Virus record (IMG/VR): IMGVR_UViG_2687453364_000004
Length of the DNA stretch: 43,538 nucleotides
Origin: a virus
Lineage: Duplodnaviria > Heunggongvirae > Uroviricota > Caudoviricetes
Reading direction: 5' to 3' (one strand)
Positions within the stretch are counted from its first letter, which is position 1, and every line of letters begins with the position of its first letter. A program made the translations under genes and the position numbers. Shown here one piece after another: positions 28,733 through 28,768 of the stretch. The notes beneath the pieces were generated by a model. The model was not told the origin of the DNA. It saw only the letters and a program-made list of their open reading frames with translations, and searched no databases.

Positions 28733-28735
28733 AAA

Positions 28736-28756
28736 GAGGGAGGGCTAAGCCCTCCC
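28736..28756. terminator. bidirectional hairpin between the convergent esterase and adhesin genes
   Basis: GGGAGGGC-TAA-GCCCTCCC stem-loop flanked by A-run/T-run (aaaaagaGGGAGGGCtaaGCCCTCCCcattcaatttt); coordinates +/-2. Confidence 0.6.
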
Positions 28757-28768
28757 CATTCAATTTTG

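Follow-up and report, generated by a model that had tools for sequence, protein, structure and literature searches.

A hairpin between P and Q of a lambdoid prophage with no detectable N gene is a predicted terminator of an adhesin moron

The 43,538-nucleotide (nt) stretch of DNA analysed here (the window; IMG/VR record IMGVR_UViG_2687453364_000004, Caudoviricetes) is a lambdoid prophage whose rightward direction corresponds to the window minus strand. Between its gene P and the gene for its Q antiterminator lies a GC-rich hairpin at 28737-28757, which transcripts from the early-right promoter pR would have to cross. We consider it likely that this hairpin is the Rho-independent terminator of a self-contained adhesin moron, and that the attenuation of pR transcription that it would cause is tolerated rather than lethal.

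The cassette would run from an AT-rich promoter region of 250 bp through the gene for an inverse-autotransporter adhesin to the terminator, and would occupy the cargo slot between P and ninB in a lambdoid prophage that lacks N, sits next to icd and has a nin-Q module of the phage 82/DLP12 type. A convergent esterase gene would use the same hairpin as the 3' end of its own mRNA. In the lysogen the hairpin would end transcripts that start at the adhesin promoter and so insulate the nin genes and Q, and upon induction it would also attenuate transcripts from pR. Judging from active relatives, Q would then come from those pR transcripts that pass the hairpin, perhaps with a contribution from a promoter-like element and leader at the head of the nin module.

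The hairpin and the adhesin cassette

The features at the hairpin and in the cassette are as follows.

28737-28757, foldable on both strands: GC-rich palindromic hairpin, from the terminator scan and folding; also present in an ST38-type prophage, there with the loop TAA and not TTA
28727-28736, minus strand: tail CTTTTTACAG, 3' of the hairpin on the rightward strand; it also follows the different hairpins of phages Perceval and 4A7
28769-33034, minus strand: intact cargo gene (4.3 kb, 1421 aa) for an inverse-autotransporter (intimin/invasin/FdeC-like) adhesin, with IAT_beta (5.6e-101) and repeated Big_1/Invasin_D3 domains
33035-33283, minus strand: AT-rich region upstream of the adhesin gene, adjoining the P stop codon and marking the cassette's left end; GC content about 0.40, two promoter-like sites
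27689-28732, plus strand: cargo gene for an esterase (alpha/beta-hydrolase, 347 aa), convergent with the adhesin gene and with pR transcription; BD-FAE and Abhydrolase_3 matches

The initial annotation had described a GC-rich hairpin followed by a minus-strand T-run between P and Q, and an early-right transcript that passes from P through the 4.3-kb adhesin gene, the hairpin with its T-run and the antisense esterase gene before it reaches the nin genes and Q; both descriptions are accurate. The interval 28733-28768 is the whole 36-nt gap separating the stop codons of two convergent open reading frames (ORFs), that of the esterase on the plus strand and that of the adhesin on the minus strand. 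Read on the minus strand (28757 to 28737) the hairpin is GGGGAGGGC-TTA-GCCCTCCCT, with 9 pairs, 7 of them G-C, and a 3-nt loop, and is followed by the tail CTTTTTACAG. The plus-strand version (28738-28756) has 8 pairs and the tail CATTCAATTT. A terminator scan of positions 22000-36000 found 24 terminator-like sites, against 12.1 +/- 3.4 in shuffles of the region, and ranked this hairpin first among them. Its predicted folding energy is -17.3 kcal/mol alone; in a 76-nt context it is -27.4 kcal/mol on the minus strand (z -3.6) and -23.7 kcal/mol on the plus strand (z -3.45), and on each strand 0 of 200 shuffles were equally stable.

The element thus combines the stable GC-rich stem-loop of a Rho-independent terminator with a U-rich tract on the minus strand (CUUUUUAC), and it is kept together with a gene whose stop codon it closely follows, beginning 12 nt past that of the adhesin. 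Since the plus-strand tail CAUUCAAUUUUG is poor, the hairpin would act mainly as a minus-strand terminator. The esterase gene ends in CTG-TAA-AAAG, whose reverse complement is the tail CTTTTTACAG; the tail hence overlaps the esterase stop codon (TAA at 28730-28732). We predict, with considerable confidence, that the hairpin serves the adhesin moron as its intrinsic terminator.

Comparison with the ST38-type prophage (L010) indicates what belongs to the cassette. There P is followed by an adhesin gene 92% identical to that of the window, by the hairpin GGGAGGGC-TAA-GCCCTCCC with the tail ACTTTTTA, and then by ylcH-ybcN, without the esterase gene. The 250-bp region upstream of the adhesin is 95% identical between the two prophages, including both promoter-like sites (33120-33093 and 33083-33056), each of which matches the sigma-70 consensus at 9 of 12 positions; promoter-like sites in the scanned region are no commoner than in shuffles (17 found, 21.2 expected). 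Homology of the window with Perceval and 4A7, by comparison, ends right past the esterase stop codon and A-run, where those phages have a different hairpin. The cargo has a GC content of 0.40-0.47, against 0.50-0.54 for P/O and the nin genes. The adhesin cassette is missing in PhiR34_1, 4A7 and Perceval, where ren-emrE-ybcK occupies the slot; more generally, the P-to-ninB slot of relatives holds ren-emrE-ybcK(-ybcL-ybcM). Upstream region, gene and hairpin travel together and the cargo is low in GC, so the cassette fits the definition of a moron: it has its own predicted 3' terminator, is variably present in otherwise collinear phages and is atypical in composition. With the morons defined in HK97 and HK022, and with lom and bor, it shares the autonomous unit, the lower GC content, the variable presence, the promoter-like sequence upstream and the stem-loop at the end; it differs in its unusually large size (4.5 kb) and in a terminator common to a second, convergent cargo gene.

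The RefSeq annotation agrees in calling the adhesin gene an inverse autotransporter. In many ST131 genomes this gene is split by ISEc23, or ISEc23 lies between the esterase 3' end and the hairpin (loci L001 and L011), a pattern that suggests either repeated targeting of the cassette by this insertion sequence (IS) or inactivation of the cassette.

Relatives without N and with an equivalent layout

Concern over a terminator between P and Q in a prophage without N is reasonable in principle, and the initial annotation had concluded from it that Q expression and lytic development looked compromised. That conclusion is not supported by the relatives. Perceval has the order P-ren-emrE-ybcK, the hairpin TAGCCCGCA-TAAG-TGCGGGCTG followed by CTTTTTACAG, the opposite-strand esterase gene, and ylcH to Q; it has no N. 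This hairpin is the top-ranked rightward terminator-like site of the Perceval early-right region. A second rightward terminator-like hairpin, with 11 pairs and the tail GTTTTATG, lies just after emrE at 7308-7333 of the Perceval locus (L092). Perceval is active in experiments (PMC9928086): LF82 deleted for Gally yielded 1.7x10^5 Perceval DNA-containing particles per mL, and an enrichment step gave plaques. This active phage must thus pass two or more such sites on the way from P to Q. Phage 4A7 is likewise N-less, has the same layout as Perceval including the same convergent esterase gene, and was deposited as a complete phage genome; its hairpin is identical to that of Perceval over the stretch read from Perceval, and folds in context at -16.9 kcal/mol, against -18.1 kcal/mol for the window hairpin. 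Phages D2, 1W, 3W, 4C10 and PhiR47_2 also have the esterase gene between P and the nin genes; the presence of a hairpin at this spot was examined in 4A7 and Perceval only.

The nearest concrete relative of the window hairpin is the hairpin 3' of the esterase gene in Perceval and 4A7 (genus Bievrevirus). These phages share with the window the convergent esterase, the CTTTTTACAG tail, equal predicted hairpin stability, the nin module and the lack of N, and differ in the stem (GCCCGCA/TGCGGGC) and in the upstream cargo, which is ren-emrE-ybcK instead of the adhesin. The activity of Perceval with an equivalent terminator and a convergent gene, and with no N, means that such a layout is compatible with a working phage. 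By analogy the window prophage probably tolerates its own arrangement. In the LB-grown Perceval lysogen the esterase gene was not among the genes expressed 5-fold above background (PMC9928086), so head-on transcription is probably weak and interference from it should be small.

The lambda nin-region terminators (tR2 and its neighbours) offer a second comparison. They have the same map position, from the replication genes to ninB/Q, and are likewise intrinsic terminators facing pR; in lambda they belong to the delayed-early design and are overridden by N-nut complexes. The window differs in having no detectable N, boxB or put, and in that its hairpin arrived with a cargo gene and is not part of the phage backbone.

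That the window has no N gene, as the initial annotation stated, was borne out by every search. No plus-strand ORF of 25 aa or more lies between cI, which ends at 36631, and 37023, and Kil-family homology begins near 37227. None of the early-left ORFs matched an N-family PHROG; tblastn with lambda N (a query sequence entered by hand), phi80 N and HK022 Nun gave no match below E = 0.39; and the RefSeq annotation of the same prophage lists no N. As far as homology can tell, the N gene appears to be missing for every known system that we tested. Rfam models run over the entire window gave nothing at gathering thresholds; relaxing the cutoff to E = 1 added no more than noise in repeats of the O gene and one isrJ-like match below threshold, just 3' of Q. 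A covariance model for put RNA was built from HK022 putL, HK022 putR and HK639 putL, which themselves score 66-101 bits; with filters off it scored at most 7.2 bits (E >= 0.68) on window positions 24500-38000. An HK022-type put RNA was accordingly rejected as a candidate, the model being without a match in the window, 4A7 or PhiR34_1. HK022 and HK639 are lambdoid and N-less like the window, and HK639 also has in common with it the cII-like family, kil-gam and the nin leader element, but both phages use put RNA for antitermination. A lambda-type nut arrangement, with boxA and boxB after both pL and pR, was not found either, and the leader of the early-left promoter pL contains none.

The N-less state is a family trait and not a lesion. 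The window's intergenic region from cI to kil, including pL, is 100% identical to that of PhiR34_1 and 99.8% identical to that of Turner, and PhiR34_1, which is on record as an isolated phage (host field MG1655), has cI, cro and cII-like genes of the same size as the window and no annotated N. A paper on lambdoid mosaicism contained nothing on antitermination, and a literature search on the origin of the PhiR phages returned nothing.

Two sites in the early region were noted in the course of these searches. A boxA-like sequence, CGCTCTTTAACAA, lies at 35582-35594 (minus strand) immediately past the cro-like gene, in the position of nutR, with none on the pL side. It closely resembles the rrn-type boxA consensus; no boxB-type hairpin follows it by eye. 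The site is present in the immunity type of the window, also in PhiR34_1, and missing from that of Perceval and 4A7. The second is the non-coding pL leader, about 190 nt at 36950-37142 (plus strand), which lies between the putative pL and kil, the position of N in lambda. Phages of two immunity types share it at about 97% identity, although their adjacent operators are completely different. Sensitive blastn found no copy of it on the pR side, and an inverted-repeat search between the pL and pR sides found only operator/promoter similarity. A structured RNA was considered and not accepted (fold z only -1.7, and relatives too similar for covariation); one natural substitution breaks a predicted stem pair with no compensation, as judged by eye. 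The last hairpin of the leader was considered as phi80 tL1A and rejected, homology beginning 3' of tL1A. The leader also contains a 31-codon ORF with a TTG start (37023-37118, plus strand) that encodes KRTRERR, resembling the arginine-rich RNA-binding motif of N proteins. Its frame is open into kil in relatives such as Perceval, and about 5 of 11 substitutions among relatives are synonymous by hand count. The peptide matched no family, and no Shine-Dalgarno sequence was seen before the TTG.

The nin-Q leader and alternative routes to Q

Downstream of the esterase gene, at the head of the nin-Q module, the following features were found.

27395-27423, minus strand: conserved promoter-like element, TTGATT-17 nt-CATAAT; record X92588 marks putative -35 and -10 hexamers here, and the element is identical in K-12 DLP12
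27364-27390, minus strand: hairpin just 3' of the -10, UCACCGGAG-CCUGAACAA-CUCCGGUGA, with a conserved loop and a variable stem, from separate folding of each sequence
27238-27339, minus strand: ylcH/orf33, a 33-codon leader ORF whose stop codon overlaps the ybcN start, from leader comparison

We compared the element among 80 IMG/VR loci together with phages 82, phi80, HK639 and PhiR34_1, the ST38 prophage and K-12 DLP12. The TTGA of the -35 and positions A2, A5 and T6 of the -10 are invariant, and the 17-nt spacer is ungapped in 24 sequences. Sequences upstream of the -35 are unalignable across about 20 contexts; hexamers and spacing are conserved independently of these flanks, as would be expected of a sigma-70 promoter. 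In one variant (L076) the element has been swapped for another promoter-like sequence, TTGAAA-17-CAATAT. A dyad, TTGATT-N6-AATCAA, spans the -35 and spacer.

The leader at 27239-27437 (minus strand) occurs in phage 82, phi80, HK639 and DLP12, and in about 20 upstream contexts. Over 189 nt it is 92.6% identical to the phage 82 record X92588, a likeness that includes the annotated putative -35/-10 and the hairpin labelled there as a 'possible regulator-binding site'. The sequence alignment covered these 189 nt, and the remaining stretch from ylcH to Q was compared by gene order and Q length; on that basis the window has the same gene order as X92588 (orf33-orf151-orf56-orf96-rus-orf45-Q) and a Q of the same length (690 nt). 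The ylcH-quuD segment of K-12 DLP12 differs in having another Q (quuD, 127 aa). Phage 82 and DLP12 both have a ybcM gene of the same orientation as upstream neighbour, where the window has the divergent esterase gene instead.

The hairpin at 27364-27390, which is also IR4 of the phi80 record, has five covarying stem versions around the invariant loop CCUGAACA, and its energy lies between about -7 and -20 kcal/mol in all but one of 22 sequences. A second small hairpin has four stem versions, likewise covarying, and carries GGGA in its loop beside the ylcH start codon, and a GAAA-loop hairpin with a T-rich run lies near the ylcH 3' end (27302-27279). These hairpins were folded sequence by sequence, since MAFFT set the variant stems in different registers; a column-wise pair count was dropped for the same reason. 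The loop motif CCTGAACA was considered for over-representation and rejected: it has 10 copies against 1.5 in shuffles, yet 86 octamers are at least as frequent, and of its copies only that in the nin leader falls within a stable hairpin loop. We ascribe the excess to codon and composition bias.

The element is a credible candidate for a regulated entry point into nin-Q, and we describe it as a putative promoter. The initial annotation had allowed for a strong promoter upstream of ybcN that would relieve the block; a conserved promoter-like element does exist there, at 27423-27395, and its identical DLP12 copy is not strongly active. In K-12, rusA of DLP12 is quiescent unless an IS insertion supplies a promoter (PMC1636454, PMC4118853). 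The element is also found outside the N-less family, in phi80 with its N and in HK639 with its put, so it is no special adaptation of phages that lack N.

Of the alternatives to a tolerated moron terminator, the one that survives best overlaps with it: a regulated promoter of the nin-Q module itself (27423-27395) would drive most Q expression through the structured leader, and terminators in the upstream cargo would be irrelevant. We regard this as possible, though unlikely as the main route. It would account for the mosaic boundary just 5' of the -35 in about 20 contexts, for the retention of the hexamers and their 17-nt spacing while spacer and flanks diverged, with the L076 substitute still promoter-like, and for the putative promoter annotated by the authors of the phage 82 record. 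DLP12 is not known to have pR. A Q-type antiterminator is reported to control the DLP12 lysis genes (PMC7918800), which we also count in its favour. Set against these points are the quiescence of rusA 3' of the identical element in DLP12 and the presence of the element in phi80 and HK639. A constitutive promoter before Q would moreover be dangerous in a lysogen, so a repressor, activator or attenuator must be assumed.

A broader form of this idea is that the N-less family as a whole (Perceval, 4A7, PhiR34_1 and the window prophage) might control Q through the conserved nin-Q leader and not through processive antitermination from pR, which we put forward with some doubt. With similar reserve, the leader (the element, the CCUGAACA-loop hairpin, the GGGA hairpin, ylcH, and the GAAA-loop hairpin with its U-rich run) could be a regulated entry point or an attenuator. 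If true, leader control of Q would explain how cargo with strong terminators accumulates between P and ninB without killing the phage.

A further alternative is that the terminator and the convergent esterase truly block pR from Q, the N-less prophage being a cryptic element that carries cargo. It would be in keeping with a strong hairpin with a good U-tract where no N, put or Rfam antitermination element is detected, with a cargo-free relative (PhiR34_1) whose freedom from strong rightward terminators suggests a need for an unobstructed path, with an adhesin found in no isolated phage, with the quiescence of the DLP12 copy of the nin promoter-like element, and with an IS3-family element that interrupts the early-left operon upstream of xis/int. 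Yet Perceval, which lacks N, is active with an equivalent hairpin, an identical tail and the same esterase gene in convergent orientation; 4A7 shares this layout and was deposited as a complete phage genome; and the late, lysis and Q ORFs of the window are all intact. On balance we think a true block improbable.

Least probable of all is an unrecognised processive antitermination, whether by a cis-acting RNA of the pL leader, by the boxA-like site or by a small peptide rich in arginine. In its favour one could cite the near-identity of the 190-nt leader in two immunity types, the nutR-like position of CGCTCTTTAACAA after cro and the lambda N-like KRTRERR in a frame that relatives keep open into kil. 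Against it stand a leader with no pR-side copy, no put match, a weak fold and an uncompensated broken pair, a boxA-like site missing from the Perceval/4A7 immunity type, a TTG-started peptide with no family match or visible Shine-Dalgarno sequence, and the fact that rrn-type boxA complexes suppress Rho-dependent and not intrinsic terminators.

Several observations weigh against the explanation that we prefer, a moron terminator whose attenuation of pR is tolerated. Perceval is the least-produced virion of LF82 and needed enrichment before plaques were seen (PMC9928086), and its low output fits some cost of the arrangement. The window U-tract, U-C-UUUUU-A after an 8-bp stem entirely of Watson-Crick pairs, may be somewhat better than the U-G-C-UUUUU of Perceval, and termination could be stronger here. 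In PhiR34_1, the relative without cargo, no strong terminator faces rightward transcription between pR and Q, so the family seems reliant on an open path, and no family-wide antitermination is implied. No isolated phage in a collection of 50,697 records carries the adhesin cassette, so that viability is known for an analogous layout and not for this one. Finally, as the identical DLP12 element leaves rusA quiescent, the nin element is not a strong constitutive promoter and cannot be assumed to drive Q.

Flanking genes and wider meaning

The remaining genes between pR and the late region are these.

33284-35837, minus strand: early-right operon before the cassette, with a cro-like gene (35607-35837), a cII-like gene with a YdaT domain (34998-35537), O (33982-35001) and P (33284-33985)
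25151-27241, minus strand: ybcN (NinB/Orf family), ninE, ybcO, rusA, ylcG and the 229-aa Q antiterminator, matching the phage 82 record in genes present and in the length of Q

In the rightward direction the order is pR (at about 35868-35886), cro-like gene, cII-like YdaT-domain gene, O, P, adhesin, hairpin, opposite-strand esterase, and ylcH-ybcN-ninE-ybcO-rusA-ylcG-Q, after which come holin, endolysin and Rz, terminase, head and tail genes. The late, lysis, structural and Q genes are uninterrupted ORFs. A homologous integrase gene adjoins icd in a closely related ST131 prophage. The O gene holds at least 5 copies of a 19-nt palindromic repeat, TTTACCTGATTCGGGTAAA, at 34447-34560, presumably the iterons of the origin.

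An IS3-family insertion sequence occupies about 39999-41278 of the window, in the early-left operon between pL and xis/int. Its terminal inverted repeats are imperfect and 42 nt long, its transposase (40044-40862, minus strand) has an rve domain, and the ST131 reference prophage (L001) lacks the insertion. The insertion could be polar on pL-driven excision functions, and may perhaps weigh more heavily on inducibility than the hairpin does. Further cargo lies beyond the lysis genes, in ORFs at about 23230-23571 (plus strand) and 22471-22851 (minus strand). Judged by their coordinate offset from the related ST131 prophage L001, they correspond to an opposite-strand gene for an Iss/Bor-like lipoprotein and to a fragment of the TonB family. 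The isrJ-like Rfam match at 25056-25135 (minus strand), just 3' of Q, scores 30.4 bits against a gathering score of 37. A promoter-like site (25167-25139) and a terminator-like stem of 12 bp (25083-25057) overlap with it. The region looks like the short leader transcript of the late promoter.

Taken alone, the hairpin would be a routine terminator at the end of a cargo gene in a prophage. For annotation, a terminator and an opposite-strand gene between P and Q are not to be taken as evidence of a defective prophage. The broader question is how lambda-like phages without N bring Q expression across the terminators of their cargo, and it bears on the induction and spread of a widespread ST131-type prophage at icd that carries an adhesin, an esterase and an Iss/Bor-like gene.

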